From Candidatus Heimdallarchaeum aukensis (GTDB lineage: Archaea > Asgardarchaeota > Heimdallarchaeia > Heimdallarchaeales > Heimdallarchaeaceae): a stretch of 64,000 bases of DNA. The stretch lies in the NCBI GenBank assembly GCA_021513695.1, contig CP084166.1:2752001-2816000 (forward strand). The letters are read 5' to 3'. Both the position numbers and the translations under genes were made by a program. The notes under the pieces were generated by a model. It saw nothing but the letters and a program-made list of their open reading frames with translations, was not told the DNA's origin and ran no database searches. Shown in pieces: positions 7,789-64,000 of the stretch (positions within the stretch are counted from its first letter, which is position 1; each line of letters starts with the position of its first letter).

Positions 7789-8194
7789 ACAAAATGTCTT
7801 ATCCTTATTTTTAAGATTTTTGGGTTCAAGAATTAAAAAATGAAAAAAAGCGATGAAATTTTTGGTAAATTCTCGAATTTTTTAAACTTATATCTCCACG
7901 AATTCTATTGCTTGATATAACAATTCTTTTCTTAACGCTTTCCAAAAAGAATTTCAAAGGTTTTATTTTCTCTTCATTATTTTTATCGGTTCTTCACAAC
8001 ATTTAAATATGCAACTGTAAAAATTACTCGTCGATTGTGTGCAGTTGTGTCATTAGTGCGCACAAAGTGCATAACCATGCACAGCGGTTCTAGATAGACA
8101 CTCTGTACAGACAAAATAAGAATAATTGTGAATAGAATGATGAAAACGGAAAGAAATTCTGACTTCTTCTATAATTTATTTTTTGGTGATAACA

Positions 8195-9580: not shown

Positions 9581-10040
9581 AGAGTTAAAAAAGAAGTTTC
9601 TAGACAATATAAAAACGGCTCAAGAAGAGAAAATTCAAGATAATCAGATTTTTATTAAAATCGACAAAGAGGATATCAAAACTGTTTCTAAATTTATCAA
9701 GGAGCAATTTGATGACGTAAATAAAATACTAGAGCAAGTTTTTGCTATAGATTTTCCTGATAGAAATGAAATGGAAATGATTTACACCTGGTGGTTTATC
9801 GAATATCATGCCTTAGTTCATTTTCGTGTAATCTTACCATATGATGATCTGAAAGTTGTATCTATTCAAGATGATTGGGTCGCTGCTAATTGGCATGAGC
9901 GAGAAACTTGGGAAATGTTTGGGATAGATTTTGAAGGACATCCAAACTTAAAGCAATTTTTGCTCTCAGACGAACTTTTCGGTAAACATCCTATGAGGAA
10001 ATCTTTCAAAATTGAGCATAATCCGGAGGAAGCAAAATGA
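9570..10040 (+). CDS. nuoC: Complex I subunit C (30 kDa)
   Basis: NuoC-type region ...WHERETWEMFGIDFEGHP...; AGGAGG RBS. Confidence 0.85.
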   Translation: MNVEELKKKFLDNIKTAQEEKIQDNQIFIKIDKEDIKTVSKFIKEQFDDVNKILEQVFAIDFPDRNEMEMIYTWWFIEYHALVHFRVILPYDDLKVVSIQDDWVAANWHERETWEMFGIDFEGHPNLKQFLLSDELFGKHPMRKSFKIEHNPEEAK

Positions 10041-11152
10041 CAGAAAATAAAGAAAGAAGTTCAAGTTTAGTTTCTTTTAGCTATGGTCCTCAACATCCTG
10101 GAACACATCCTTATTCCTTACTTTTAACTGTTGATGGAGATCGAATAGAAAAAGTAGAAGCACAGATTGGTTATGTTCATAGAGGATTAGCTAAACAAGC
10201 TGAATCAAGAACATTTATCCAAGCTTTACCAATAATGGAAAGATCTTGTTTCATTGATTCAGTTAACCATCAATTTGGTTATGTCATGGCAGTGGAAAAA
10301 TTAGCCGGTATAGAAGTACCAGAAAGAGCAGAATACCTTAGAGTTATTGCTGCTGAATTATCACGCATGAACTCTTTGATAAGCTGGTTTGGTGGTTACG
10401 CAGCTGAAACTGGAATTAACTCAGCTTTCATGTGGGCTTGGAAAGATAGAGAAATGTTTCTTGACCTATTTGGCCATCTTGCAGGAAGCAGAGTTTCTGT
10501 AATGTACTTAACTATCGGAGGAGTTAGGTGGGATTGGAATGATAAGCTAACCAATTTAACTTGGGAAATTATTGATTATATGGAAGAGAGACTAAAAATA
10601 CACAAAAAGCTGGTTATGAAGAATTCAATATTCAAAAAACGAACTAAAGGTGTAGGAGTCGTTTCAAAAGAGAAAGCACTAGAATATGCATTTACAGGGC
10701 CTAACTTAAGAGCTTCAGGAGTACAAGGCGATATTAGAATTTTAGAACCCTATAGTGTTTATGATCATTTCAAATTTACTCCTAAAGTAATGACTGAGGG
10801 AGATAACTGGGCTAGAACCATGATTCGTCTACACGATATTGAAACTAGTATGGAGATTCTAAAACAAGCTCTTCCAGAGATTCCCGAAGGAGAATACAAG
10901 ACTAAAGTTCCTCTAAAATTAAGAGCTAATGCTGGCGAGGCATATGCAAGAGTAGAGTTGTCTAGAGGAGTCATGGGTTATTATATTAGAACAGTGGAGG
11001 ACAAATCAACAAAACCCTATAGAGTTAAAATAAGAGGACCTTCATTCTCACACTTCCAAATTGTAGAAGATATTCTAGTTGGAACACATATGGCTGATAT
11101 TCCAATAATCAAAGGTTCTCTAGATGTATGTCCAGCAGATTTAGATAGATAA
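10037..11152 (+). CDS. nuoD: Complex I subunit D (49 kDa)
   Basis: SFGPQHPGTHP..., RIEKVEAQIGYVHRG, C-terminal ...IRGPSFSHFQ...DVCPADLDR motifs typical of NuoD / [NiFe]-hydrogenase large-subunit fold. Confidence 0.9.
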   Translation: MTENKERSSSLVSFSYGPQHPGTHPYSLLLTVDGDRIEKVEAQIGYVHRGLAKQAESRTFIQALPIMERSCFIDSVNHQFGYVMAVEKLAGIEVPERAEYLRVIAAELSRMNSLISWFGGYAAETGINSAFMWAWKDREMFLDLFGHLAGSRVSVMYLTIGGVRWDWNDKLTNLTWEIIDYMEERLKIHKKLVMKNSIFKKRTKGVGVVSKEKALEYAFTGPNLRASGVQGDIRILEPYSVYDHFKFTPKVMTEGDNWARTMIRLHDIETSMEILKQALPEIPEGEYKTKVPLKLRANAGEAYARVELSRGVMGYYIRTVEDKSTKPYRVKIRGPSFSHFQIVEDILVGTHMADIPIIKGSLDVCPADLDR

Positions 11153-11163
11153 GAAGGTGAAAG

Positions 11164-12140
11164 TAATGAATACAGATTTTCTATTTATAAAAGTCGCAGT
11201 ATTTCCTGGTGTCCTTTTCGTACTATTTGGATGTCTTTATTTGATGTATTTCGAAAGGAAAACAATAGCGAGAATTCATGGAAGAATAGGGCCACAATAT
11301 GTAGGCTATGGAGGTTTGTTACAAACAATAGCTGATCTAATGAAATTAATGTTTAAGGAATGGATATTCCCAAAAACAGCAAAGAAAGCAGCTCTATTTC
11401 TAACCCCTATTGCTCTATTTCTACTTGCTTTTCTACCCCTATCGGTTGTTCCATGGGGAGAAAATTGGTATGTAGCAGATTTCAGTGTTACATTGATCTT
11501 TGCATTTGTGGTTATAGCTGCTATTCCTTTCTTAAGCCTTCTACTTGGTTGGTCCTCAGGAAGTAAATATTCTTTGATAGGCGGATACAGAGCTGCATCA
11601 CAACAAATTGTGTTTGAGGTTCCTTTATTTCTTTCTGCATTAACTCCTGCTATACTTGCAAATAGTTTGAGTTTAATGGATATTACAAAAAATCAGAAAA
11701 TATGGTTCCTTGTACTGAATCCAATCGCTGCTTTCGTCTTTTTCGTTTCTATGCTTGCAATGATGGAAAGACAACCTTTTGATATTCCTGAAGCAGAATC
11801 CGAATTAGTATTTGGTTGGAAAACAGAGTTAAGTGGTATTTTCTTTGGTTGGTCAATATTCGCTGGTTACACTATTATGATCGGAGGAAGTGCTCTATTT
11901 GTTGTTTTATTCATGGGTGGTTTTAACGGGCCAGGAAATAATTTAGGTGTCCTATGGTTTATGCTCAAACTAGCTTTGATATGGCTTATTCTTTTCGCTA
12001 TGAGAGCAGTTTTACCAAGATATAGAATGGATCAGATACTAAGAATGTCTTGGAGGTTGATGATACCACTTTCTTTGGTCAGTATTGGCTTATCAATCGG
12101 GTTACTATTTGCATTCCCCAATTTCTTCAGAGGTGTATAA
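11164..12140 (+). CDS. nuoH: Complex I subunit H
   Basis: ERKTIARIHGRIGPQYVGYGGLLQTIADLMKL matches the NuoH/ND1 signature; ATG at 11164 after GGTGA RBS. Confidence 0.9.
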
Positions 12141-12183
12141 TTTGGCAGATAAAAACTTTCTAACTAACATAAGATCGTTATAC

Positions 12184-12627
12184 ATGGCTATTGCACAGAT
12201 GTTCAAGAAACCATTCACAACAAAGTATCACACAACAAACAAAGAAAGAATAGTGGAATACGACAGATTGCGTGGAGAACTTATAATGAACTTACCCAAA
12301 TGTGTGGGTTGTACACTATGTGTTCAAGCTTGTCCTAATGCTGCATTGAAAATGGTTTCATATGACAATGGAAATCCAAGAAACAAAAAGAAACATGTTC
12401 CTTCTTTTAATTTAGGACTCTGCAGTTTTTGCGCTTTATGTGTAGAAGCTTGTCCTTATGATGTCCTAGAAATGGGTAAAGTGTACGATAGAGCCTATGC
12501 CACTATGGAAGATATGCTTCGTTCTCCTGAGGAGATGTATGAGGATTGGATTGAACAGAAAGGAGAAGAAGATGAAATAGATCCTGAAGAAATTGAAACT
12601 GACAAAATCGATATCGAGGAGGATTAA
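12184..12627 (+). CDS. nuoI: Complex I subunit I (2x[4Fe-4S] ferredoxin-type); acidic C-terminal tail
   Basis: Two CxxCxxCxxxCP motifs (CVGCTLCVQACP, CSFCALCVEACP); track start 12085 overlaps nuoH, internal ATG 12184 more plausible. Confidence 0.85.
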   Translation: MAIAQMFKKPFTTKYHTTNKERIVEYDRLRGELIMNLPKCVGCTLCVQACPNAALKMVSYDNGNPRNKKKHVPSFNLGLCSFCALCVEACPYDVLEMGKVYDRAYATMEDMLRSPEEMYEDWIEQKGEEDEIDPEEIETDKIDIEED

Positions 12628-12628
12628 A

Positions 12629-14086
12629 ATGGTTGTTAGTACAGTTTTGTTATTAATTTCTATAATAGCTCCTTTAGTTATAGGATTCTTATTATTCATT
12701 CCATTCCTTCAAAAATATGCAGGGTGGATAACAGCTGGAGTATCTACTGTCGTTTTAGCCTTCTTAATTACTGCTTCTGTTCCAATATGGAACAGTTCTG
12801 TAACAAAAGTGGAACTCCAATGGGCTCCAGCAGCTGGTCTGTTAATGGGATTCTTGTTGGACAATCTATCAGCACTTATTGCATTATTGATAGCAGTTGT
12901 TTCTACCTTAACAGCTTTCTATTCCATAAAATATATGGAGCATGAAGAGAGAAAAGGATTATACTTTAGCTTATACAACTTCTTCTTTGCAGGTATGCTC
13001 GGAGTAGTTCTATCTACAAACCTCCTAGAGTTTTTCTTCTTCTGGGAACTTATGCTAATTCCTAGTTACTTAATGATTGTTTATTGGGGTACTAAAGCTA
13101 AAGCAGCAAAAGTTGCATTGAAGTATTTCTTCTATACTCAAGTGGGTTCTATTGGAATAATTGTTAGTTTTGCAATTATTGCCTTTTATGGTAACAGTTT
13201 AAACATTGCAGAAATTGCAACTAATCTCTCAATATCTTCACTTCCAAATGCTATACTCTACTTAACCTTTATACTACTGATGATAGGTTTAGCTGTAAAA
13301 CTCGCTATCTTTCCTTTCCAAAATTGGTTACCTGATGCTCACGGAGAAGCTCCAACACCAATAAGTGTATTGCTCTCTGCAGTTATGATCGAAACAGCAG
13401 CTTATGCAATAGTTCGTATTGCTATGCAATTTTATGGAGAGATTTTCGAAACATCTAGGATTGTCTTTGAGAGTGTAGGAGTATTTACCCTCTTGTATGG
13501 AGGCTTCTTAGCTTTAAGGCAAACAGATGTTAAAAGACTACTCGCTTATTCTTCTGTAAGCCAAATGGGTTATGTCTTTATTGGTTTATCAACATACAAC
13601 CAATTTGGTGTTTCAGGAGGATTATTCCACATATTAGCTCATGGATTTGGAAAAGGGATACTCTTCATGACTGCAGGAATTCTCATACATGAAGTGAAAA
13701 CTAGAGATATTACTGCAATGGGTGGATTAGGTAGAAAAATGCCTTTCACTGCTATAATTTCATTTATTGCAGCATTAAATCTCGCTGGAACACCCCCACT
13801 AAGTGGATTCTTCAGTGAATGGTTTATCTTTAGTGGCGCATTCTATCAAGCAACAACAGAGTTTGTAATTCTAGGTATTTTTCTATTACTAGGTTCAATA
13901 TTAAGCGCAGCTTATATGCTACGTTTTCTGTGGAAAGTGTTCCTTGGTCCTTTACCAGGAGAACTAGAAAAGACAAAAGAAACAAAGCTATTACTTTGGG
14001 TTCCAGGAGCGATTTTAGCACTATTGGCTATATTCTTCGGTATCTTTGCTAATGTTGCAATTGAACTTTTCAGTACAGTGATTTGA
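12629..14086 (+). CDS. nuoM: Antiporter-like complex I subunit (second NuoM-type paralog)
   Basis: WLPDAHGEAPTPISVLLSAV... antiporter-family motif; 14 TM; GAGGAGGA RBS before ATG 12629. Confidence 0.75.
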   Translation: MVVSTVLLLISIIAPLVIGFLLFIPFLQKYAGWITAGVSTVVLAFLITASVPIWNSSVTKVELQWAPAAGLLMGFLLDNLSALIALLIAVVSTLTAFYSIKYMEHEERKGLYFSLYNFFFAGMLGVVLSTNLLEFFFFWELMLIPSYLMIVYWGTKAKAAKVALKYFFYTQVGSIGIIVSFAIIAFYGNSLNIAEIATNLSISSLPNAILYLTFILLMIGLAVKLAIFPFQNWLPDAHGEAPTPISVLLSAVMIETAAYAIVRIAMQFYGEIFETSRIVFESVGVFTLLYGGFLALRQTDVKRLLAYSSVSQMGYVFIGLSTYNQFGVSGGLFHILAHGFGKGILFMTAGILIHEVKTRDITAMGGLGRKMPFTAIISFIAALNLAGTPPLSGFFSEWFIFSGAFYQATTEFVILGIFLLLGSILSAAYMLRFLWKVFLGPLPGELEKTKETKLLLWVPGAILALLAIFFGIFANVAIELFSTVI

Positions 14087-14095
14087 GGTGAAAAA

Positions 14096-16126
14096 ATGGA
14101 AGCTATAATAATTACAGTATTACTAACAGTTTTGGTTCCTCTTGTAGGAAGCTTGATAAGTCCATTATTAAATAAAATATTGAAAGAGAAAATACACTTT
14201 TATGCTATAGCCATAGCAGTTATAACTGCTGCACTTGGAATAACTTCTTTTTCAATTGGTTTAAGAATGGAGGAAATAGAGCCTTGGACATTCAATTGGA
14301 TTAAAGATCTATTAAATCCTGGAGAGTTTATACAAGGAGGAATTTTTCTAGATAAATTCTCGTTACTTATGCTAATGCTTGTTTCAGTAATAGCCATGTT
14401 GATTGTAATCTTTAGCCATGATTATATGCACGGTGATGATGCTTTACCAAGATATTATTTCTGGATACTATTCTTTATTGGCAGTATGCTAGGGCTAATA
14501 GTATCAGACAACTTGATTCAGTTGTTTATATTCTGGGAAGGTGTAGGATTAGCCAGTTATGGACTAATTGGTTTCTGGAACAGAGAAAATGAAAATGTGA
14601 AGAGTGGTACAAAAGCTTTTCTTGTTACAAGAGCTGGAGATATGGGTTTACTTGCTGCGATAATATTGATTTACTTTAATGTAGGAACACTAAGTTTCTC
14701 TGAATTCACCTCTGATTTTGGAAATATTTTAGGTGAAAGTAAATTAATAGTGTTAGTAGGAGTCTTAATACTCGTTGGAATTGCAGGTAAATCTGCTCAG
14801 TTTCCTTTGCAGTTCTGGTTACCGGAAGCTATGGCAGGTCCTTCAACCGTATCGGCTCTCATCCATGCAGCAACAATGGTTAAAGCTGGTATTTATCTCG
14901 GAGGAAGATTCTTACCTTATTTCTTAACCGCAGCGCCTTTATATGCTGAGCAATTAGAAGTTCTCTTCTTAATAATTGCAGCTGTTGGAGTATTCACAGC
15001 TTTTCTTGCAGCATCTATAGGCATGGCAGCGAGAGAATTCAAAAAAATACTGGCTTTTTCAACTATTTCGCAATTAGGATACATGTTGCTTGCAATTGGT
15101 GTTGCTGGTCTGCTTCATAATGGAGAAGATGCTCTATTTGCTTCTATCTTCCACATGACCTCCCATATGTTCTTCAAAGCATTACTCTTCCTTGGTGCAG
15201 GAGCTATCTTACATTCTGTAACAACTACGAAGGATATCTTTGAAATGGGAGGACTGAGAAAATATATGCCTAAAACAACATTGTTGTTCAGTGCAGGAGC
15301 ATTATCTTTAGCTGGAATACCTCCTTTTGCAGGTTTCTTCTCCAAAGAGACAATATTTTCAAAAATTATTGAGTATATTGAAGAAACTTCATCAGTATGG
15401 GGGTGGATATTCCTGTCATTAGCAGTAATTGCAGCGATAATGACATTATTTTACACGATGCGAATGATAGGTGTAGTTTTCTTTGGAGAAAGTGGAGAAC
15501 ATGTAAAAGAAGCTGAAAAACATGGACATCTTCATGATCCTAGTTGGTTTATGATGGGCCCTTTACTAGTTTTAGCAATAGGATCAACAATATGGGGATT
15601 CTTTGGCGGATTAATAGAACATTGGTTTTATCACGGAGATCAAACCTATGGAGAATGGATAGGCCATATCTTCAGAAATGGATGGGGATGGTTAATATTA
15701 GCTATAATTGTAATTGTTGGTGGAATACCAGGATACCTAATTTACTTTAGAAAAGTAAACAATACTTTCTTTGCCAACTCGTTCTTACAGAAGTTTCTGT
15801 ATAATCGTTGGTATTGGAATTCCTTAATGTTAACTGTTTTCGTTGACGGAACAACAAAAGTTGGAGATCTGCTTCAATATCCAGAAAAAGCACTTGATCA
15901 TGGAACAAACTCCCTTGCAAGTGGAGTTCTTGCTACTGCTAATGCTTTCGAAGTTCTTGATCGCAAAATAGTTGACGGTGCAGTAAACAAAATAGCTTAT
16001 GGTTTCCAATGGATGGGGATGAAACTTCGAAGATTCGAAACAGGCTTCATATCTCAATACCTGTGGATAGGAGCATTTGGTTTTGTTATTCTATTAATTG
16101 GAGTAACACTTGCTATTATATTGTGA
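14096..16126 (+). CDS. nuoL: Complex I subunit L (long antiporter-like subunit)
   Basis: 676 aa; WLPEAMAGPSTVSALIHAATMVKAGIY is the NuoL/ND5 signature; C-terminal extension typical of the NuoL lateral helix. Confidence 0.85.
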   Translation: MEAIIITVLLTVLVPLVGSLISPLLNKILKEKIHFYAIAIAVITAALGITSFSIGLRMEEIEPWTFNWIKDLLNPGEFIQGGIFLDKFSLLMLMLVSVIAMLIVIFSHDYMHGDDALPRYYFWILFFIGSMLGLIVSDNLIQLFIFWEGVGLASYGLIGFWNRENENVKSGTKAFLVTRAGDMGLLAAIILIYFNVGTLSFSEFTSDFGNILGESKLIVLVGVLILVGIAGKSAQFPLQFWLPEAMAGPSTVSALIHAATMVKAGIYLGGRFLPYFLTAAPLYAEQLEVLFLIIAAVGVFTAFLAASIGMAAREFKKILAFSTISQLGYMLLAIGVAGLLHNGEDALFASIFHMTSHMFFKALLFLGAGAILHSVTTTKDIFEMGGLRKYMPKTTLLFSAGALSLAGIPPFAGFFSKETIFSKIIEYIEETSSVWGWIFLSLAVIAAIMTLFYTMRMIGVVFFGESGEHVKEAEKHGHLHDPSWFMMGPLLVLAIGSTIWGFFGGLIEHWFYHGDQTYGEWIGHIFRNGWGWLILAIIVIVGGIPGYLIYFRKVNNTFFANSFLQKFLYNRWYWNSLMLTVFVDGTTKVGDLLQYPEKALDHGTNSLASGVLATANAFEVLDRKIVDGAVNKIAYGFQWMGMKLRRFETGFISQYLWIGAFGFVILLIGVTLAIIL

Positions 16127-16135
16127 GGTGAAAAA

Positions 16136-17605
16136 ATGATAGGAATATTAACTACTTTAATAACTGTTCCCCTTATAGGAGCAATAATTGTGTTCTTGAT
16201 TGGAACAAAAAATAAAAAACTTTCAAGACTTTTAGCTCAATTTATAACATTTGCTGAGTTATCAATCTCTTGGAGTTTATTCGCTTTCTATGATAGAATT
16301 AATAAAAGGCTCAATATTGAGGATGAATTTGTACGATGGATAGATTCTTTTTCTATTCATTTTTCGCTCAGCATTGATGGAATAAGCTTTGTGCTAGTAC
16401 TACTCTCAACTACCATCGTATTTCTAGTTGCTCTCCAATCTACATTCGTAATAGAAGAAAATGAACATTTATACTATACTTTGCTTTTACTATTTGAGAC
16501 AGGAATTTTAGGAGTCTTCTTGGCTTCAAACTTAATAATATTCTACATTTTCTGGGAATTAGTTTTAGTTCCAATGTTCTTTCTTATAGGTGAATGGGGT
16601 GGAGAAAGAAAACGTTATGCTGCAGTCAAGTTCTTCATATTTACACATGTAGGAAGCTTGTTTATGCTACTAAGTTTTCTGTATCTATTCATTAACATGA
16701 AAACATTTAGTATTATAGAGTTAAGTCAAAAGGATATACCTGAAATTGTTCAAACCATTGCAGCAATCGGTATCTTCCTTGGAGTGGCAGTAAAACTACC
16801 CGCTGTTCCAATACATTCATGGTTACCTGATGCACATGTAGAAGCTCCAAGTCCAGTAAGTGTATTACTCGCAGGTCTATTGCTAAAAATGGCAGGATAT
16901 GGTTTTCTTAAACTAGGATTGAATATTGTCCCAGAAGGAATAAAAGTCCTGCGTCCTGTTCTTATAACCTTAGGTGTAGTTGGAGCTTTTTATGCTGCTT
17001 TTGCTGCTATAGCACAAAAGGATCTCAAGAGAGTTATTGCTTTTACTTCAATTAATCACATGAGTTTTATCATGATCGCAGTAGCAGTTGCAACACCCCT
17101 TGCAATTATTGGAGCAGTATTTCAAATGATAAGCCATGGAATAATCATAGGGCTAATGTTCTTCCTCTCTGGTATAATACAACACCATGTAGGAACCAGA
17201 GAAATAAACTTACTTGGAGGAATAAAAAAGAAACCTGTTTTAACTGGTTTCTTAATTGTTGGCTCTATAGCTGCATTTGGCGCTCCTCCAATGAGTGGAT
17301 TCATTGCAGAAATGATGATATTCTTTGCTTCGATTCCAGTATATCCTTGGGTAATGACTGTGGCTGCTTTCTCAATCGTAATAACCTCTGTTATTTACCT
17401 TTGGTTACTAACTAGAGTACTATTTACTAATAAAGCAGAAGAAGTAGTTTTTGAGGACCTAGTATCTCATCAGAACTACTTAAAATATGAATTATCAATA
17501 GTTGGTCTCTTATTTATACCTATATTCGTTCTTGGATTCTTTCCAAATTTGTTAGTATCAATTATTGAACAAGCTGTGAACCAGCTTCTTAAAATAATAG
17601 GGTGA
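16136..17605 (+). CDS. nuoM: Complex I subunit M
   Basis: WLPDAHVEAPSPVSVLLAGLLLKMAGYG is the NuoM/ND4 signature. Confidence 0.85.
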   Translation: MIGILTTLITVPLIGAIIVFLIGTKNKKLSRLLAQFITFAELSISWSLFAFYDRINKRLNIEDEFVRWIDSFSIHFSLSIDGISFVLVLLSTTIVFLVALQSTFVIEENEHLYYTLLLLFETGILGVFLASNLIIFYIFWELVLVPMFFLIGEWGGERKRYAAVKFFIFTHVGSLFMLLSFLYLFINMKTFSIIELSQKDIPEIVQTIAAIGIFLGVAVKLPAVPIHSWLPDAHVEAPSPVSVLLAGLLLKMAGYGFLKLGLNIVPEGIKVLRPVLITLGVVGAFYAAFAAIAQKDLKRVIAFTSINHMSFIMIAVAVATPLAIIGAVFQMISHGIIIGLMFFLSGIIQHHVGTREINLLGGIKKKPVLTGFLIVGSIAAFGAPPMSGFIAEMMIFFASIPVYPWVMTVAAFSIVITSVIYLWLLTRVLFTNKAEEVVFEDLVSHQNYLKYELSIVGLLFIPIFVLGFFPNLLVSIIEQAVNQLLKIIG

Positions 17606-17610
17606 AAAAA

Positions 17611-19041
17611 ATGGAAGTAATTATTTATCCTTTAATCGCACTCCTTGTTGGTATTGTGTTAAGTTTAATAACTGGAACACTAAAAAAAGGAGATGTTGCA
17701 CGTACAATAAGTATCTTAAGCCTTATAACAGCGATATCTTTGCTTGCGGTTTTCTATCCTTTCAACGGTCAAAGACTATTCAGTGACACAATTGTTCTAG
17801 ATAATTTTGGAGGATTTTTTGTTTTTCTATTCTTATCTCTCGCTGTATTTATTCTACTTGGAAGCACAAAAGTGTTGGATGAACATCCTGAAATGCCGGC
17901 ACTTTTACTTCTTTCTACAATTGGGATGGCTTTAATCGGAATTACTGATAACTTAGTGATGATCTTTGTAGCTTGGGAATTAATGAGTTTGACAACATAC
18001 GTATTAGCAGGTCTTGGAAAAAGAGAACAATCAACAGAAGCGGCCATGAAATACTACATTTATGGAAGTGTTTCTTCTGCCCTTATTCTATTCTCTATTA
18101 GCTTGATATACGGTATAACTGGCTCTATGCAATTGTCCATAATAGCTACTGTTGCATCTTCACTAGACACAACGGCAATAGGTGTTCTGCTTTTATCTGC
18201 AACAATATTCATCTTTGGTTTTGGATATAAAGTAGGAATAGTTCCATTCCATCTTTGGTTACCAGATGTGTATGAAGGAAGCCCCGCTCCAGTAAGTGGG
18301 CTTCTAGCAGGTGTATCAAAGAAAGTAGCTATTGTCGCAACAGCTAGAATCTTTTTGACTGGATTTGAGAGTGTAGACTTTAATTGGAAAATCCTTTACG
18401 CAATTATAGCTGTAATAACTATGACTGTTGCTAATATTGCTGCTTTATCTCAAAGAAAAGTTGTAAGAATGTTTGCATATAGCTCGATCTCTCAAATAGG
18501 ATACATGATTGTCGGATTTGCTATATTTTCTCCTGAAGGATTGGCAGCAACGATGATGCAACTAACTGTTCATGCAGTTACAACCGTTGGAGCCTTTATC
18601 ACAATAGGTATTATAGCAAAGAAACTAGATCTCAGGACATATGATGACTATAAAGGTTTAGGAGCTAGAAAACCTGTGTTAGGACTAGGTTTGACAATAA
18701 TGATGTTGTCTTTAGCTGGCATTCCTCCTCTTGCAGGATTTGTCAGTAAATTGTTCTTGTTTACTGAAGCAGTAAGAGCTAATTTACTGTGGTTAGCAAT
18801 CGTTTTAGTTTTGAACAGCGTTTTATCGCTTGGTTACTATCTCCCTCTCATAAGAAACATGTATCTTGAGAAACCAGAGAAAACAACAGAAGGCGAAGAA
18901 ACGAAAAAAGAAAAATTCGACACTAGGACTATAGGTCCTATAATGGTCAATATTATGACTACATTAGCTATTGTAATTATACCAATCTTTGCACAAAAGA
19001 TTTTCGACATAATCACTGAAGCAGCTAAAAATGTAATATAG
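17611..19041 (+). CDS. nuoN: Complex I subunit N
   Basis: WLPDVYEGSPAPVSGLLAG is the NuoN/ND2 signature; ATG 17611 after AGGGTGAAAAAA. Confidence 0.85.
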   Translation: MEVIIYPLIALLVGIVLSLITGTLKKGDVARTISILSLITAISLLAVFYPFNGQRLFSDTIVLDNFGGFFVFLFLSLAVFILLGSTKVLDEHPEMPALLLLSTIGMALIGITDNLVMIFVAWELMSLTTYVLAGLGKREQSTEAAMKYYIYGSVSSALILFSISLIYGITGSMQLSIIATVASSLDTTAIGVLLLSATIFIFGFGYKVGIVPFHLWLPDVYEGSPAPVSGLLAGVSKKVAIVATARIFLTGFESVDFNWKILYAIIAVITMTVANIAALSQRKVVRMFAYSSISQIGYMIVGFAIFSPEGLAATMMQLTVHAVTTVGAFITIGIIAKKLDLRTYDDYKGLGARKPVLGLGLTIMMLSLAGIPPLAGFVSKLFLFTEAVRANLLWLAIVLVLNSVLSLGYYLPLIRNMYLEKPEKTTEGEETKKEKFDTRTIGPIMVNIMTTLAIVIIPIFAQKIFDIITEAAKNVI

Positions 19042-53796: not shown

Positions 53797-55326
53797 TCAT
53801 CTCAAAGCCTTCTTCGCTTTTTCCAATGTTCTATCAGGGTCAGAATTATACTCTTGAATAATAGAAGCAACATCTTCAAAGTAACGGATTCTCTTTTTTA
53901 CCATCCAGCGTAGAACTGTTTTTCTCCTTTCAAGTTCATCATGGATATCTTGCTCTGTTATTCCAGTATTTTCCATTATTTTTTCTAAGACATAACTTCT
54001 ACCAAAGTAAATAAATGAATCTTCTCTTGGATTCCACTGAAATACTTTGTTTGTGAGAATTTCTTCAGTAACTGGATCTAACCCTATTAATTCTGTAATA
54101 GTTAGTGTTCTTCTTGCAAATTTTCCTTGATGGCGTACTTTTCTAACTACATGGATAATATCTAAACTCTTCATCATGCTTCTTGGAATATTCATTGGTT
54201 TACTCTCAAGCCTGTGGATAACACCTTCAACTGAGTCACCATGAATGGTACCTAGCCCTCTATGCCCAGTACTCATAGCTTGGAACATTGCATAAGCTTC
54301 CTCACCTCTAATTTCTCCTACAATAATATAGTCTGGTCTTTGTCTCATAGCTGCTCGAAGTAACTCGTACATAGAAATTTGTCCTCGTCTATATCCTGTT
54401 TCTGTTGCTTCTCCAAAACCAGAGCGAACAACGCTTGGAATCCAGTTCTCATGTGCTAAATTTAGTTCTGCTGTATCTTCAATTGTAACGATTTTCATAT
54501 CGGGTTTAATCATCATACTTAGGGTATTAAGTAAAGTAGTCTTTCCTGCAGCCGTACCTCCTGCCACGAGAATAGATACATTGTGCTCCATTATGAACCA
54601 ATAATAAGCTGCAATCTCGATGTCAATAGTATTATAAAGAATTAAATCTGTAATTGTGAAGGGATCAGCCTTAAATTTACGAATAGTAAAGGTTGAACCT
54701 CTTTGAGTTACTTCTCTTCCATAAGTTAGTTGCACTCTGCTACCATCTTCTAAACTTGCATCCAATAAAGGATTAGCAATACTTACATGTCTTCCTGCTC
54801 TCTGAGCTAATTTAATAATAAAGCTGTTCAATTCGTCCTCTGTATCAAAAGATACATTAGTTGCAATAGATTCATATTTTCTGTGCCAAACATAAATAGG
54901 AATACCTACACCATCACATGATATATCTTCAATATTAGGGTCAAGCATAAGTGGTTGTATCTTCCCAAAGCCAATGAGATCTCTTGTCAAATAATACATT
55001 ATTTTCTCGAACTGATTTTCATTAAGTTTTATACGATATCGTTTAATGACATCAACTATTTTCTTTTTTAGATATTCTTCTGCTTTAGTAAAATCTTTGA
55101 GAACACTAAAATCAACATCTAATTCTTCAATGAGAATCTCTAAAATCTTGTTGTAAATAGCTTTTTCCTTGCTGTCTAGTGGGATTTCCACAACCATATA
55201 TTGGGTTCTTTGTGTAACAGGATTCGTTTGAATTAATACATAACTAAAGGGAGGACTAACAGGATAGGTTTCTTCTAAAAGAGGAACTGAACTGTCCATT
55301 GACATTGTACCGAAATTTTCATCCAT
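53797..55326 (-). CDS. Type IV pilus/archaellum-type secretion ATPase (FlaI/TadA/VirB11 family)
   Basis: Walker A VAGGTAAGKTTLLNTL, Asp box, Walker B, His box; N-terminal domain typical of FlaI-like ATPases. Confidence 0.8.
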   Translation of the reverse strand: MDENFGTMSMDSSVPLLEETYPVSPPFSYVLIQTNPVTQRTQYMVVEIPLDSKEKAIYNKILEILIEELDVDFSVLKDFTKAEEYLKKKIVDVIKRYRIKLNENQFEKIMYYLTRDLIGFGKIQPLMLDPNIEDISCDGVGIPIYVWHRKYESIATNVSFDTEDELNSFIIKLAQRAGRHVSIANPLLDASLEDGSRVQLTYGREVTQRGSTFTIRKFKADPFTITDLILYNTIDIEIAAYYWFIMEHNVSILVAGGTAAGKTTLLNTLSMMIKPDMKIVTIEDTAELNLAHENWIPSVVRSGFGEATETGYRRGQISMYELLRAAMRQRPDYIIVGEIRGEEAYAMFQAMSTGHRGLGTIHGDSVEGVIHRLESKPMNIPRSMMKSLDIIHVVRKVRHQGKFARRTLTITELIGLDPVTEEILTNKVFQWNPREDSFIYFGRSYVLEKIMENTGITEQDIHDELERRKTVLRWMVKKRIRYFEDVASIIQEYNSDPDRTLEKAKKALR

Positions 55327-56782: not shown

Positions 56783-57640
56783 TCACCCTATAATATTTAT
56801 ATTGATGTTTATCTTAATAATGTTAACGTAAAGATAATGAAAACTGTAATTTTCATTTACTGGAACATATACAGGCTGTTCTTCTTCCAAGGTATGGTGT
56901 TCTCCATAAACATTAGCTTTTCCTATTAAATCCGAATTAAAAGCAATTGGTTCCAGAGATGTTTTCTCTGTTCCACTAAATTCAATTTCTAAGGATATAG
57001 ATTTTGTTGTATTTTCGACTCCAAACTCGCTGTTAGTGCTAATTGAGACATGAATAATATCAATAGTAAAAATTTCTGTTGTCCCTTCTGTCTTATAATC
57101 AATATCGATGCTGTATCTATAGTATAAAGACATATACAAATAAGCAGGATCAAATATTGTTCTGGTCTCATTTATCACTGTAATGTCATTATATAATTTG
57201 GTACTACCATTAATAAATAAATAATCTTGGTCTTCAGGGCCTTTAAGATATCTGTGTTCTCCTTCTTCGAAATCTTCAACATTTGTACTTTTATGTACTA
57301 ATCTAGTCAAGTTTTCTGCTAGAATTGATTTGCTAAAAGAACTTGCTGTATCATATAAGGTGAAATAAACTACTTTACTATTATCGAAGTATAAAGAACC
57401 ATCTTCTTGGTAATAATCAAAAGAAATAGCCTGAGGTGGAGGATTTACAAGTAAGTTCTGAATGTTTGAGTCTAGTGCACTAAAATATAAACGAACAGAA
57501 TTATTGTAACTATTATCTTTAAACTGTATAATGCTAGGAAACATATAAACTAAAGATATGCCTATAGCTGCTAATATAAGCGTAAACATAAGTATTGTTG
57601 CTACTATTGGAGATACTCCCTTCTTTCTATTCAGTTTCAT
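56783..57640 (-). CDS. Archaeal type IV pilin/archaellin-like protein (class III signal peptide)
   Basis: MKLNRKKGVSPIVATILMFTLILAAIGISL is a textbook prepilin-peptidase site (KG followed by VSPIVATIL). Confidence 0.6.
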   Translation of the reverse strand: MKLNRKKGVSPIVATILMFTLILAAIGISLVYMFPSIIQFKDNSYNNSVRLYFSALDSNIQNLLVNPPPQAISFDYYQEDGSLYFDNSKVVYFTLYDTASSFSKSILAENLTRLVHKSTNVEDFEEGEHRYLKGPEDQDYLFINGSTKLYNDITVINETRTIFDPAYLYMSLYYRYSIDIDYKTEGTTEIFTIDIIHVSISTNSEFGVENTTKSISLEIEFSGTEKTSLEPIAFNSDLIGKANVYGEHHTLEEEQPVYVPVNENYSFHYLYVNIIKINININIIG

Positions 57641-58097
57641 TCTCTTGTTTTAATTTGACTATAACAAATATAACCTTATTGGTTTTTCTTTGCTCTATGA
57701 AATAAGCTAATAATAATTTACATACTTAGACTTAATGATAACTTATTATTTGTTAATAGTTATCAAATTTTTTTCAACTCTCTTTTTCTTTTATCATTTT
57801 ACTCACTTTTCATTGCATTACTTTTTAAAACAATTTTACTTTTTAGTTTCTCTTTATTTTATCTAGTAAGTCGTATATAGTTTATGTAATGGCATTTTGT
57901 CGGAAGTACTGGGGCTTGAAATTACTGTTTGCAAAATAAGTTTTTTACACTATGATGTAAAAAAAAATTAAGTGAAAAAAAGTTAGGTGCTTATAAAAGG
58001 TAAAAGAGTTTTAAATGGAAAGAGAATCTTTAAGAAAAATTTTCTTGTTTAAGTACTAAAGTCTCTAAAAGTTATTAGAAGAAAATAGGGGATAATA

Positions 58098-61000
58098 TTG
58101 GCAGATCTAAAACTATCAGAAAATGCATTAACAGTACTACAAAAAAGGTACTTACTAAAAAATGAGAAAAACGAAGCAATTGAAACTCCAGAACAGATGT
58201 TTGAAAGAGTGGCAAAAAGTATAGCTTCAAGTGAAGAAGAAAAAAAAGAATTTTATGAATTGATGACTTCTTTAAGATTTCTACCTAACAGCCCTACTCT
58301 TATGAACGCAGGAACGAAGCTAGGTCAACTATCAGCTTGTTTCACTGGAGAGCAAGTAATAATCACAGCTGAAGGAAATAAGCAAATAAAAGATATTCAA
58401 ATTGGAGATTTAGTCCTGACAGCTTCAGGTAATTTTAGAAAGGTTACCCAAACTATGCAAAGAAAAGTTGACAAAAGATACATTATTGATGTTTTGAAAC
58501 TACCTAACTCTACTCTTTCTGTAACAGAAGATCACCCTATTCTTACCTACAAAAATGGAAAAATTAAATGGAGTTTAGTAAAAGAATTAAGTAAAAACGA
58601 TTTTGTAGCTTTATCATACCCAAAGGAAATTGAAGATATTTCTTCAATTAATGTTATAGATTACTTATCTGATAGAGATTATAAAGTAAAGGATGGTATG
58701 ATATTAAATAAAAATACAAAAGTTGGAATAGAATCAGATGAAATAAGTGATCAAGAAATTCCAATAAGAAATAAAATAGAAGTAGATGGAGAGTTTCTTA
58801 GATTTTTAGGTTATTATGCTAGTGTGGGAGAACTAGATAAAAAAATAGTAAGATTTGCTTTTTCAGATAAAGAGATGGATTATGTTGAAGAAGTAATATC
58901 AATTGCAAAAAGTAAATTTGAATTAGATGCAAGAATAGAAAACTCTGATGGAAATATAGTGATTGTGCAATTTTATTCATCCATACTATCTGAATTCGTT
59001 AAGAAAGTCATAGGAGAAGGAAACAACAAAAGAGTTCCCATATGGATATTGAAATTACCTCCAGAAAAACAAGAAAACTTTGTTTTAGGGTGTTTTAGAG
59101 GAGATAACTCTTTATTTTCTAGTAGTTATATGCTTGATGCTCGTTTATCTGCGTGTAATGATAATTTAGTATATTCAATATGGATCATGTTAATGAGAAT
59201 GGGGATAGTTCCCAATCTTGATAAATCCCCTATTCCAAAAGGTGAAACCACCTATTCTTATTCTTGTTATATTGGAGAAACAGAAAAGAGCGATTCCTTT
59301 GTAGAGATTCATGGAAAAGACGGTAAAGGAATTTCTCAATTATCTTTACAAAAATTAAATCATATAATTGTCAATGATACTGTTTTTCTCCCTATACGAA
59401 GTATCGAATGTATCGAAGAACCTGTGACTGTTTATAATCTAGAAGTAGAGGAGGAACATACATATGTTGCAAATTTTGTTTCAGTTCACAATTGTTTTGT
59501 ACTTCCAATAGATGATTCTCTTCCCTCCATTTTTGATGCAGTGAAAAAAGCGGCATTAATACACCAAAGTGGAGGAGGATGCGTTGCTGAAGGAACAGTA
59601 ATACCTACAGAAGAATTCGGTTTTATACCCATTGAAAAGATACCTGGATTTGAAAACATTCCTTCTGACGAACAAGGACATGATTGTGAACCTTTCACTG
59701 TTTATTCATTTGATGAGGACAAAGAATCTTTCACAAAAGGAACAGTAACAAAACTTTGGAAATTCAAGAAAAATAAATATTTGAGCATTAAATTCGGAAC
59801 AGAAGGAGTAATAGAAGTCACACACTGGCATCCTTTCATAGTTTATGTCCCTTCTGAAGAGAAAAAGAAAGGAGGATATTATACAGAAAAAAGAGCAGAT
59901 GAATTGAAAGTTGGAGATCTGTTGGTTAGTCCCTCTACCCATAAGATAACTGAAACTTCTAGTATTTCCGATGTACACAAGGTTAAAGTAGAAGAAATAA
60001 AAGAAATAGAAGAAGAAAAAGTATTTTATGACTTTACAGTACTTAAATATAATAACTATCTAGCAGGTTCTAAACAATTTACAGTTATCCATAATACAGG
60101 TTTTAGCTTTAGTAATATTAGACCAAAAAATGATGTAGTCAAAACTACTGGGGGGGTAGCTTGTTTTCCTGAAGATGTAAGGATTTATACTAACAAGGGA
60201 TTATTAACAATCAAAGATATAATCCAATCTGATCAACCAATTAAAGCTTTGACTCATGATGGATTCCACGAAATAATAAATAAATACGATAACGGAGATG
60301 CTGAAGTTTACAGACTTATTACATCTAATGGATATTCAGTTAAGGCAACCTCTACTCATAAATTTTTAACAATAGAAAATAATGAGTTGGTACTAAAGCC
60401 TCTTAATAAACTTCAAGAAGGAGATTATGTTCTTCTTTTTTCTACTTTTGAATCTGTTGATGAAAAAGAACCATTTAAGCTATCTCCTATTACTGACGAT
60501 GGTCAAACTTTTGATGAAATTTATCTTGATGAAGATCTTGCCTATTTCATAGGATTAACTTATGCAGATGGACATATTATTGATGATGGAAGACATTATA
60601 GCGTAAGAATCACTTTAAACAAGAACCAAATACGTATAATCGAAAAAATAAAGAAAATAGTTCAAACTAAGTTTGACTATGATTTGAAAGTCTATGAGCG
60701 TAAAAATGTAAATAAAGTTGAACTTGTTCTACACGGAAAAAGATTTGTAAAATTGTTAAAAGAAAATAATTTACTTAAAGAAAAATGTGAAAATATTCGT
60801 ATTCCAGAATTATTATTTCAAAGCCCAAGAAATGTCCTAAGCTCATTTATTGCAGGATACTTCGATGGTGATGGTCATGTAAGTAAAAGCGGGCGAATTA
60901 GCATTAAAACAATATCCAAACAAATGAGTGAAGATTTTTCATTATTGATAACGCGGTTAGGTGTACTATCTACAACTCATATTAGTCCCCCTATTTATGG

Positions 61001-64000
61001 AATAAGAAGAAATAAAAAAAGTTACAGAGTTTCAATCCCAACAGCTCTCTTCAAGAAAAGATTTGTAGAACAGCTTTCAAAATACTCAATAAAACTAGAA
61101 AATTATACATTGAAAGAAGGATCTACAAATAAACTTTTTTCTTATCCGTTTAACATCTTAACTCATGTTGGGAATCCTTCCAAGAGGGCAGATATTGCTA
61201 AAACAGTAATACCTTATAACAGAAAGAATACCTATCGTAAAGCTATTCTACGGATTCTTCAAAATTCTAATAAATATGGACTTACACCCGAAGAAATTGC
61301 TTTCTTAAAGAAACTAGAAAATCTTTACCCTGTAAAGATAAAGTCTATTAAAAAAGAAGGAATTGAACGTGTTTATAATCTCGAAGTTAAGAATATCCAT
61401 CGACTTGTGGCTAATGGTTTTTATGTTTCAAATTCAGGCCCCATAAGCTTTATGGAAGTCTTTAATGCTGCAACAAATACTATCAAACAAGGGGGATGTA
61501 TTGCTGCTGAGAGTTTAGTAAGAACTACAAATGGTGTTCTTCCTGCTGGTGATTTACTTAATTGTCCTCCTCTTGGCGAAAACAACACTCAAGAATTAAT
61601 CTATGATGGAGAGTCGTATAACAATGCTTTTCTGTCTCTGGATAACGGTTTTGCGGATGTATTAATTCTTGAAACTGAGCTGGGTTTGACTTTAAAAGCT
61701 ACATATAATCATTTAATTGCTACAGTAGATGAAGACGGGAATATAGTATGGACTGAGGTTGAGAAGATTAAGAAGGGCGATTGGGTTGTAATTGTATTAG
61801 GGGGTCACGTTGGACAAAAAATCTTCCTCCCAAAAATAGAAAATCAACATCATAATGCTAATCCCATTAAAATCCCTGAACAATTTAATGCTGAGCTTGC
61901 CGAAATCTTAGGTTTGTATATGGCTGATGGATGTATTAGTACTGGTGGTCGAATCATCTTTAGTGTCGATAATAAGGATTTAGATCTCATTAAAAGAATC
62001 GAATCTTTAATGAAAAAAGTATTTAATTTAAAACTTGGAAGAATAGAGGATAAACAAACTTACTCGGATGTTATTTTCTATTCTCGTGATCTATGCGACT
62101 ATTTCAGTAAAATGAATTGGAAAAAAGAGTCATCATCAGAAGCTTTTATCCCTCAAGAGATTTTTATTTCTGAACCAGAAATAGCAAAAGCATTCGTCCG
62201 AGGGTTGTTTGAAGGTGATGGTAATGTTCGTTCTGAAGGATATCCAAGGCTTTATTCAACATCTAAAACATTAATTGAACAGACACAACAACTTCTTTTA
62301 GGCCTTAACATTGTTTCTTCTGTAATAAAGGAAGAAGATAGAAGTAATAGTTTAGGTGATTTACCTCTATATGAATTATCAATAATTCCAGAAAGAAGTA
62401 TTATAAAATTCAAAGAAGAAATTGGTTTTATATCAAACAGAAAAAAACAGTTGCTGGAATCTAGGTTTACGGGCAAAAAGTTCGAACAATCAGATATTAT
62501 TCCTAATCAAGGCAAAAAACTGAAAGAGCTATATAGTTATGTTGGTGCAGGGACCAGTAAAGGGAGAAATAAAAAAGGAGCAAACAGAGAATTTTATAGA
62601 GCAATATACCATTATATAAGCGAGAATCCATCTTCTAAAAGAAATTTGACAAGAAAAAGGTTAAATTATTTGATGAAAAATTTCGAACAAGTTAAGAATT
62701 CCAAGCATTTCCAACAGATGTCTGATCCAAAATACTATTTTACAAAGGTTATAGATGTTAAAGAAAATCGAACTTATACAATGGACTTCGAGGTGCCAGA
62801 ATCAAGCAAATTCGTAGCAAATGGTTTCTTAGTACATAATCGTCGTCGTGGGGCTAACATGGGTATCCTTCGTGTTGACCATCCTGATATCATGTCTTGG
62901 ATTACTTGTAAAGAAGACCAGACCAAATTTACTAATTTTAACATTTCTGTTGCAGTTACCTCTGAGTTTATGCAAGCAGTGGAAGAAAACAGAGACTATG
63001 ATCTTATCAATCCTCGCACAAAGAAAGTTGTAGGTAAACTCAATGCTGCTGAAGTTTTTAACAAAATTGTTGAGATGGCTTGGAAAAATGGCGAGCCGGG
63101 TATAGTTTTTATTGACCGTATGAACGAATTCAATCCTACCCCTGAAGTAGGAGATATTGAAAGCACTAATCCTTGTGTAGTGGGTGATTCATTAATATCT
63201 ACAGAATTTGGATTAATGAAAATGCGTGATTTAGTCTCCAAGTTTCCTGAAGGCTCAGTAAAAATAACTACTGATAACCGTGTTCCTCAACAAATATTAA
63301 CATCTGGAAACCAAGTGCAGTTGTTGGATACAAAAACTCAAGGGGTATCATTGAATACTATTACACGTGCTTTCTCTACTGGAATAAAAGATGTATACAA
63401 ACTAACTACAGTGTCAGGTTACGAGTTGAAAGCTACTGGAGACCATAAAGTACTAACCAATGAAGGCTGGGTACAAGTAAAAGACTTAGATGTTAAAAAA
63501 CATAGAGTAAAGATACAATCAGGAGAAGGAGTTTTTAACAGTGTAAAAGAGTTACCCATCAAAGTCGAAAATGAAATAACTGGTGAGAACGGAAGAAAAT
63601 ATAGTTTTAATTTACCAAAAACATGGTCGAAAGAGTTAGGTCATGTACTAGGTTGGCTAGTAGGAGATGGCTGGATAAGGACAGGAGATAAGAATAGAAG
63701 AGTAGGATTTACTTTTTCAAAGAAAGATGAAGAAGTGTTAAAGTATCTCAAGGATGTATTAAATAAATGGTACAACAAACAAATTAATGAAATAAAAAGA
63801 GAAACAAATGTTTATCATTTAAGTTACCATTCAAAATATTTTGTTGATTTCTTCATAAATTTGGGAGTTAAACCAGAAAAATCAGCAAAAAAGGTTGTAC
63901 CTGAGTCAATGTTTCTAGCTACTAAAGAAGCAGTAATTGCTTTCCTACAAGCACTTTTCTCTGCAGATGGAACAATACGTTACTCAAAGAAATCTTCAAG
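58098..64000 (+). CDS. nrdJ: Class II (B12-dependent) ribonucleotide reductase, interrupted by >=5 inteins; 3' end beyond window. Exteins in window: 58098-58338, 59493-59579, 60096-60161, 61434-61496, 62841-63173
   Basis: Spliced extein reads ...[20 protein letters not shown]|CFVLPIDDS...IHQSGGG|[22 protein letters not shown]|[21 protein letters not shown]|[17 protein letters not shown]...ESTNP|C, matching RNR motifs ([52 protein letters not shown]). TTG start at 58098. Confidence 0.85.
58339..59492 (+). mobile_element. Intein 1 (with LAGLIDADG homing endonuclease), inserted at [11 protein letters not shown]
   Basis: Block [15 protein letters not shown]..., LAGLIDADG-like [12 protein letters not shown] and [11 protein letters not shown], block G ...[10 protein letters not shown] followed by +1 Cys. 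Confidence 0.8.
59580..60095 (+). mobile_element. Intein 2 (172-aa mini-intein, no endonuclease), inserted at SGGG/TGFSFS
   Basis: Starts [10 protein letters not shown]..., ends ...KQFTVIHN followed by +1 Thr. Confidence 0.75.
60162..61433 (+). mobile_element. Intein 3 (with LAGLIDADG endonuclease), inserted at TTGGVA/SGPISF
   Basis: Starts [29 protein letters not shown]-like [14 protein letters not shown] and [13 protein letters not shown], ends ...VANGFYVSN followed by +1 Ser. Confidence 0.8.
61497..62840 (+). mobile_element. Intein 4 (with LAGLIDADG endonuclease), inserted at IKQGG/RRRGA
   Basis: Starts [30 protein letters not shown]-like [14 protein letters not shown] and [12 protein letters not shown], canonical block G ...[10 protein letters not shown]; the following residue reads Arg. 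Confidence 0.75.
63174..64000 (+). mobile_element. Intein 5 (partial, with LAGLIDADG endonuclease), inserted at ESTNP/C(GEQ)
   Basis: Starts [20 protein letters not shown] after TNP; LAGLIDADG-like [14 protein letters not shown] and [13 protein letters not shown]; continues past window end. Confidence 0.75.

Follow-up and report, generated by a model that had tools for sequence, protein, structure and literature searches.

The ribonucleotide reductase (RNR) of Trichodesmium erythraeum, a prokaryotic enzyme with several inteins in conserved motifs, carries four of them, which was long cited as the maximum for a single protein (Liu, Yang and Meng, 2003, as cited in PMC10710043 and PMC2874743). 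That maximum was exceeded in 2023, when five inteins, a number called remarkable, were reported in the Prp8 protein of Anaeramoeba ignava (PMC10710043). Canonical intein splicing passes through a branched intermediate that requires a Cys, Ser or Thr at the first extein residue after the intein, the +1 position (PMC4031507). Type A bacterial intein-like (BIL) domains have an N-terminal Cys and a C-terminal His-Asn and lack a +1 nucleophile; ligation of their flanks by a freed amino group, after Asn cyclisation, has been proposed and shown (Dassa et al., 2004, and Aranko et al., 2013, as summarised in the review PMC4031507). Here we analyse a 64,000-nucleotide stretch of the archaeon Candidatus Heimdallarchaeum aukensis (contig CP084166.1, positions 2,752,001 to 2,816,000; hereafter the window), at the end of which lies nrdJ, a class II RNR gene interrupted by five inteins (I1 to I5). 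The fourth of these is followed by Arg, and it belongs to a widespread clade of inteins without a +1 nucleophile.

Like the T. erythraeum gene, the window gene is a prokaryotic RNR gene with inteins in conserved motifs. It differs from that gene, as far as the citing papers describe it, in having five inteins rather than four, an Asgard host, no group II introns that we could see, and one intein without a +1 nucleophile. In number it equals A. ignava Prp8, which is a eukaryotic spliceosomal protein with unrelated inteins, and to which it is the prokaryotic RNR equivalent. Five inteins is thus equal to the published record for one protein, although it is not unique in public data. A first-pass annotation of the window had called this an extreme intein load for a single essential gene, a description that the literature and the homologues described below bear out, and had treated all five inteins as ordinary, which does not hold for I4. 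A full-text literature search pairing Heimdallarchaeum with intein, with most subscription journals outside it, found no paper. The clade without a +1 nucleophile appears to be undescribed: we found no description of it in a full-text literature search that is incomplete for subscription journals and has InBase outside it.

Results

An nrdJ reading frame with five inteins

The open frame extends over 1967 codons (58098-63998, forward strand, like all features of the gene given below) with no stop in its translation, and exits at the window end. Because the DNA of this region is only about 31% G+C, such a frame is not a product of chance. It starts with a TTG at 58098, seven bases downstream of an AGGGG ribosome-binding site. 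Pfam models recognise an RNR all-alpha N domain, part of the RNR barrel, five Intein_splicing stretches and LAGLIDADG domains, and the top NCBIfam models are those of B12-dependent RNRs, with scores that fall below the cut-offs owing to the inteins and the truncation.

The exteins within the window sum to exactly 263 codons, the approximate figure of the first-pass annotation, which had also placed all five inteins and their junctions exactly to the frame. Extein 1 (80 amino acids, 58098..58337) holds the RNR all-alpha N domain, ends in TKLGQLSA and has the same start in relatives; extein 2 (29 amino acids, 59493..59579) reads CFVLPIDD...IHQSGGG; extein 3 (22 amino acids, 60096..60161) and extein 4 (21 amino acids, 61434..61496) come next; and extein 5 (111 amino acids, 62841..63173) ends in GDIESTNP. 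When joined, these 263 residues are colinear with residues 125-321 of Thermotoga maritima NrdJ (PDB 1xje; E = 1.7e-53), with zero gaps at junctions 1-4. T. maritima Cys134 is the partner of the +1 Cys of I1, and the alignment stops at Pro321, just before Cys322; because it ends there, the Cys that follows I5 in relatives corresponds to Cys322. In T. maritima NrdJ, Cys134 is a redox cysteine and Cys322 is the thiyl-radical cysteine. In relatives that are about 90% identical, I5 is followed by an intact, uninterrupted C-terminal extein of 459 amino acids with a TSCPD domain. Judged by this colinear similarity, which includes conserved motifs and the active-site cysteines, the gene is nrdJ, encoding a class II (B12-dependent) RNR of Heimdallarchaeaceae (Asgard), with five inteins directly before or inside conserved active-site motifs, as had been proposed in the first pass. 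Neither of the outcomes named there as contradicting the proposal was seen, since the exteins are colinear with NrdJ and the interrupting segments have intein motifs.

The five inteins differ in their endonucleases

Each of the five interrupting segments has a significant Pfam Intein_splicing match (for I5, also on the copy at the syntenic locus L004), and all five have a Cys at position 1 and a block B TxxH motif. I1 (385 amino acids, 58338-59492; LGQLSA/C...VHN/CFVLP, with slashes marking junctions) has TEDH as block B and a +1 Cys. I2 (172 amino acids, 59580-60095; QSGGG/C...IHN/TGFSFS) has THWH and a +1 Thr, and I3 (424 amino acids, 60162-61433; TGGVA/C...VSN/SGP) has TSTH and a +1 Ser. 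I4 (448 amino acids, 61497-62840; KQGG/C...VHN/RRRGA) has TYNH as block B, TMDFEV as block F and LVHN at its end. The window holds the first 275 of the approximately 411 amino acids of I5 (63174..64000, cut by the window end; STNP/C...), which include block B TGDH and the motifs GWLVGDGW and ALFSADGT. A C-terminal Asn is found in I1 to I4 (VHN, IHN, VSN and VHN), and the end of I5, read from relatives, is SLD. The +1 residue is Cys, Thr and Ser for I1, I2 and I3, and Cys for I5 in relatives; for I4 it is Arg.

The inteins fall at different points of a homing cycle. LAGLIDADG_3 matches are significant in I3, I4 and I5 only (Pfam values from 1e-17 to 1e-23, with both motif Asp residues present); that of I3 is 1.9e-17, accompanied by Hom_end, and that of I4 is 9e-22. 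The first-pass annotation had listed I1 as a fourth LAGLIDADG intein, yet I1 has no Pfam LAGLIDADG match, and a divergent LAGLIDADG-type domain is visible in it by profile comparison only: the I1 and I4 families align along their whole length with motifs in register (hhalign, 99.8%), and the centre of I1 has a weak match to PI-PkoII (E = 7e-4). Its second motif is VLGCFRGDN. Since its first motif, LGYYASVGE, has Val in place of the acidic residue, the I1 endonuclease is probably degenerate and inactive. The I1 site is filled in 18-20 of the 120 best homologues.

I2 has no endonuclease domain. It is the same allele as inteins of 371-373 amino acids in three homologues (P0002, P0005 and P0006), minus about 200 amino acids, a clean deletion of the endonuclease; I2 is a 172-residue mini-intein, as described earlier. 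It also matches both the N- and C-terminal splicing regions of PI-PfuI (the Pfu RIR1-1 intein, PDB 1dq3; E = 1.4e-11), over an I2 stretch ending ...YQNYLAGENGMIFVHN. Both are archaeal RNR inteins, but PI-PfuI is 454 amino acids long and has an active LAGLIDADG endonuclease. Because the two are homologous, we infer that they share an insertion site. As to the suggestion that the sites might differ from those of catalogued RNR inteins, I2 is an allele of the characterised PI-PfuI intein, and all five sites recur in public data.

The Ser-Asn end of I3 is atypical, and all five alleles found at this site in the best 120 homologues end in SN/S. In relatives that are about 90% identical, I5 is 411 amino acids long and ends ...GIVSLD/CGEQ, with Asp replacing the C-terminal Asn. 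Among 60 alleles at the I5 site (STNP/CGE; for example those of P0001, P0003, P0013 and P0021), the last two residues are HN, LD, VD, RQ, HQ, SN, RN or AN, a range wide enough for Asp and Gln termini to count as common there.

I1, I2 and I3 most likely follow the standard four-step splicing route, since they keep all canonical class 1 residues (Cys1, block B Thr and His, terminal Asn, and +1 Cys, Thr or Ser). I5, judged from its relatives, most likely splices in the standard way too, with Asp standing in for the C-terminal Asn. The endonucleases of I3, I4 and I5 are apparently intact, that of I1 looks degenerate and that of I2 deleted.

A clade of inteins without a +1 nucleophile

The residue after I4 is an Arg, encoded by CGT at 62841-62843, and is no nucleophile. 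The junction HN/RRRGANM is found in all close relatives, including independent and closed genomes, and the Arg is, by this repetition across assemblies, not a sequencing error. We mapped inteins in the best 120 homologues with a custom alignment that includes an intein state. The I4 site is filled in 107 of these, and the +1 residue is Lys in 81, Arg in 11, Ile in 1, Thr in 13 and Ser in 1; by contrast, at all other intein sites the +1 residue is only ever Cys, Ser or Thr. Representatives at 50% identity, drawn from 1.8 billion proteins, contain 24 junctions without a nucleophile against 38 canonical ones. A scan of GTDB species genomes with a degenerate DNA pattern for HN-x-RRGANMG found at least 119 loci, with Thr at +1 in 73, Ser in 8, Lys in 20, Arg in 14, Ile in 3 and Val in 1, such that 38 of 119 species loci among the matches listed lack a nucleophile.

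Among these listed matches, the forms without a nucleophile are spread across Asgard archaea of the Heimdall, Hod, Hermod and Prometheus groups, DPANN lineages (including the closed 773-kb genome of Nanoarchaeota YN1), Ca. Methanoperedens, Methanomassiliicoccales, Thermoplasmata and Hydrothermarchaeales, one metagenome-assembled genome (MAG) of Thermococci, and a few Chloroflexota. When the intein of the Thermococci MAG was used as a query for cultured Thermococcales with a Val at +1, all 10 matches came from uncultured organisms. In a neighbour-joining tree of 160 sequences, the inteins without a +1 nucleophile form one clade of 104 sequences, apart from the Thr/Ser clade, save for two long-branch exceptions; the tree suggests a single loss of the nucleophile besides these two. 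The end of the intein covaries perfectly with the residue that follows, L[VI]HN/[KRIV] in one group and [VI][ST]HN/[TS] in the other. The canonical Thr/Ser(+1) inteins (KQGG/C...[VI][ST]HN/[TS]RRGANM) are homologous to I4 over the whole length and share its insertion point and endonuclease type; they differ in keeping the +1 nucleophile and in having Ser or Thr at the second position ahead of the terminal Asn, a stretch that in the I4 clade reads L[VI]HN, with Lys, Arg, Ile or Val next. In close relatives without the intein the sequence is KQGG-R/K-RRGANM, and the T. maritima counterpart is KQGSRRRGA. Since both carry a basic residue there, I4 sits exactly before a residue that is native to the enzyme.

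Inteins of this clade keep their reading frame and catalytic residues. The whole intein lies in one open reading frame at 33 of the 38 species loci, the other five being cut by the end of the locus, and all 38 stay open for at least 100 codons downstream. Cys1, the block B Thr, the penultimate His and the terminal Asn occur in every one of 34 clade members, and the two LAGLIDADG Asp residues in 32 and 33 of these 34. Loci whose intein lacks the block B His are those of the Thermococci MAG (L079), of Nanoarchaeota YN1 (L034) and of three other species. In the closest homologue (P0001) and in Ca. Heimdallarchaeum endolithica, I4 has lost 67 amino acids in frame, outside the splicing blocks.

Several simpler accounts of the I4 junction were considered and rejected. 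A shifted splice junction is incompatible with the residue-for-residue alignment of Thr-type and Lys/Arg-type inteins at both ends, and the flanking extein stretch contains no Cys, Ser or Thr that could act as an alternative nucleophile nearby. PI-PfuI is not a characterised allele of I4, its match to I4 being weak and confined to the endonuclease region; it is instead a relative of I2, as described above.

The five-intein architecture recurs in relatives

The closest homologue, P0001, is a protein of 2495 amino acids, 90% identical, from Heimdallarchaeaceae MAGs, where it is found on three contigs. Its exteins total 722 amino acids, which leaves 71% of the protein to inteins. The cluster of P0001 includes UJG44997.1, from the closed 3.33-Mb circular genome of Ca. 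H. endolithica PR6 (CP084167.1). The P0001 gene and its H. endolithica counterpart each contain these five inteins, at unchanged junctions, and none further, which turns the first-pass "at least five" into five; the architecture is repeated in P0001, P0321, P0322 and the complete H. endolithica genome. By extrapolation from these relatives, the full H. aukensis precursor would have about 2560 amino acids, about 70% of them in inteins, and removal of all five would leave a mature NrdJ of about 722 amino acids.

Database annotation of these genes is uneven. UJG44997.1 (P0320; locus L066, open reading frame start near 2518) is a 2376-amino-acid entry named 'TSCPD domain-containing protein' that begins at an ATG inside I1. 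It is thus without extein 1 and the first 39 intein residues, and its frame continues upstream to the TTG and ribosome-binding site known from the window gene. Entries for related proteins go under the name 'LAGLIDADG family homing endonuclease'.

The best 120 homologues mostly contain fewer inteins: one in 57, two in 39, three in 13, four in 8 and five in 3, with none having more. Nine distinct insertion sites are filled among them, including all five of the window gene. Two other archaeal nrdJ genes have five inteins (P0005 and P0011), and close relatives of the window gene carry between two and five, a presence/absence polymorphism.

Selection on nrdJ and likely exchange of its inteins

We compared window positions 58098-64000 with the syntenic locus L004 (2320-9807). 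The ratio of nonsynonymous to synonymous substitution rates (dN/dS) is 0.035 for the exteins and 0.22 for the inteins, and 0.024 for extein 5, downstream of I4. By the low extein value, nrdJ is a functional gene under strong purifying selection rather than a pseudogene. Synonymous divergence (dS) is 0.14-0.36 for the inteins (0.14-0.18 for I3, I4 and I5), compared with 0.46-0.64 for the large exteins 1, 2 and 5 and with 0.67 and 1.11 for two flanking genes. The short exteins 3 and 4 have values of 0.14-0.16, as low as those of the neighbouring inteins, with too few codons to weigh. Because intein dS is lower than that of the large exteins and of the flanking genes, the data fit an exchange of inteins between lineages that postdates the divergence of the host gene, as homing would give.

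Genomic setting

The window is cellular and archaeal, containing a nuo operon as well as a FlaI ATPase of the archaellum type. The FlaI gene (53797-55326) lies amid type IV pilus/archaellum-like genes with T2SSF-type membrane proteins. A small GTPase gene (Arf/Ras/Roc Pfam matches), placed at about 47.5-48.5 kb by synteny with L001 9398-9940, adjoins the pilus/archaellum-like genes, an arrangement that is consistent with an Asgard origin. Between positions 8000 and 16000, G+C content climbs from about 30% to about 36%; this region covers the start of the operon for nuo (complex I) membrane subunits (10037-19041), and the rise is probably a compositional effect of membrane-protein genes.

Upstream of nrdJ there is an AT-rich 450-base leader (window 57700-58097) with a near-palindrome, TTACACTATGATGTAAAA. 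An Rfam scan of the window gave zero matches, and hence no cobalamin riboswitch was recognised upstream of nrdJ. Three public assemblies that encode an identical upstream protein of 285 amino acids (the gene at window 56783-57640; L001, L002 and L003) stop 75-133 bases short of the nrdJ start. It seems that the multi-intein nrdJ gene, or strain variation in its intein content, breaks short-read assemblies.

Discussion

Starting from the observed gene structure, junctions, selection signal, and existence and breadth of the I4 clade, we conclude, with a probability of roughly 0.8, that H. aukensis has a functional, single-copy-looking nrdJ gene from whose product five inteins have to be removed, the fourth belonging to a clade that lacks the +1 nucleophile and would rely on ligation by an amino group. 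That each intein splices, and how I4 leaves, we infer from sequence; for excision with ligation, the strong purifying selection on the exteins is indirect support. Since the +1 residue in the I4 clade is a native Lys, Arg, Ile or Val, trans-esterification to its side chain is impossible. Attack by a Lys side chain was considered and rejected, since Ile and Val occur at the same position; for that reason a part for any +1 side chain is excluded. We propose that an N-S acyl shift at Cys1 of I4 would form a thioester, that cyclisation of the terminal Asn would free the C-extein, and that the freed alpha-amino group would attack the Gly(-1) thioester, joining the exteins; a Gly at -1 would favour such an attack. 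The same route of amino-group ligation has been proposed for type A BIL domains (review PMC4031507). We favour it over cleavage alone, with a confidence slightly short of even, because hosts that are 76-90% identical alternate between filled and continuous empty alleles, and because the site lies in the conserved core of the enzyme.

Several observations and considerations weigh against this conclusion. The block B His is kept in 29 of 34 clade members; the other five have Glu or Asp (TYNE/TYDE), which is unusual for an active N-terminal junction, this His normally being one of the best conserved residues of inteins. The window ends within I5, such that it is relatives with 90% identity that supply the count of five and the Asp terminus. 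Each mechanistic step is an extrapolation; type A BIL domains give more cleavage products than splicing (review PMC4031507), and aminolysis may accordingly be inefficient for an essential enzyme.

The first alternative to consider is that I4 and its Lys/Arg relatives cleave at both ends without ligation, making NrdJ a non-covalent two-piece enzyme that ends in ...KQGG on one side and begins with RRRGANM on the other. The lack of a +1 nucleophile is compatible with this model: its loss prevents the branched intermediate, and cleavage dominates in BIL domains (PMC4031507). Conservation of Cys1 and His-Asn would be expected under cleavage too. However, I4 interrupts the conserved core, with motifs on either side whose alignment to T. 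maritima NrdJ is free of gaps. Moreover, in close relatives with empty alleles the chain runs on unbroken as KQGG-R-RRGANM, and under the model hosts with 76-90% identity would have to switch repeatedly between one-piece and two-piece enzymes. We therefore regard a two-piece NrdJ as unlikely, if well short of negligible. That I4 is instead kept as a permanent insertion domain of the mature enzyme would also account for the missing nucleophile, but a 448-amino-acid insert would then interrupt a conserved core stretch, invariant Cys1, block B Thr, penultimate His and terminal Asn in 34 of 34 clade members would be unexpected for an inert insert, and close relatives function without I4; we consider this very improbable.

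Two further explanations question the locus itself. Intein presence is polymorphic among close relatives, which carry between two and five, and several assemblies break at the locus, both of which would be expected if inteins of different strains had been collapsed into one chimeric contig, with real genomes holding fewer. An identical order of the five inteins in four or more independent records, one of them the circular CP084167.1, and a reading frame unbroken across all junctions make a chimera hard to credit. The gene could also be a decaying pseudogene, or the Arg after I4 a sequencing or assembly error or a recent Cys-to-Arg mutation, given that CGT is a single transition from TGT and that public short-read assemblies break just upstream of nrdJ. 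Set against this are 1967 stop-free codons at 31% G+C, a dN/dS of 0.035 for the exteins and 0.024 downstream of I4, the repetition of HN/RRRGANM in independent genomes, one of them closed, and a Lys, Arg, Ile or Val at +1 in at least 38 species-level genomes, leaving next to no room for decay or error.

Returning to excision of I4 by amino-group ligation, the comparison with BIL domains deserves attention. BIL domains occur in variable, non-conserved bacterial proteins, are not known to be mobile by means of a homing endonuclease, and mostly cleave. I4 has what defines a type A BIL domain at the level of sequence, namely a HINT domain with an N-terminal Cys and His-Asn and no +1 nucleophile (C...LVHN/R). 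In other respects it differs from BIL domains: it bears a LAGLIDADG domain, lies in a conserved motif of an essential enzyme rather than in a variable protein, is polymorphic for presence and absence at that conserved site, and occurs mostly in archaea. Because of its homing endonuclease, its conserved site in an essential gene and its nearest relatives, which are canonical inteins, we do not classify I4 as a BIL domain, although it may work like one. Tentatively, and at odds somewhat below even, we suggest that I4 represents a new mechanistic class of mobile inteins, combining a homing endonuclease and a conserved site with ligation that involves no +1 side-chain nucleophile, and recognisable by the signature L-[VI]-H-N/[KRIV].

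A Cys, Ser or Thr after the intein is treated as an invariant rule, and is used to define and detect inteins. Given a widespread clade that violates this rule and nonetheless stays under selection, pipelines for finding inteins that require a +1 nucleophile will miss or mis-call such elements, and the boundary between inteins and BIL domains becomes blurred. Members of the clade are also candidates for traceless protein ligation, with no Cys, Ser or Thr scar left behind, a tool long sought in protein engineering. The locus matters for annotation too, since these genes now go under 'LAGLIDADG family homing endonuclease' or under 'TSCPD domain-containing protein', and at least one of them has a wrong start.

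The locus and its counterparts in relatives show that a prokaryotic essential gene tolerates five inteins amounting to about 70% of its coding length, and this one gene appears to hold a natural series of the homing cycle, with intact, degenerate and deleted endonucleases side by side. If the proposed mechanism is true, dropping the +1 requirement would have opened the common Lys/Arg alleles of nrdJ to invasion by the I4 lineage in Asgard, DPANN, methanogen-related and Thermoplasmata archaea, and in some Chloroflexota.

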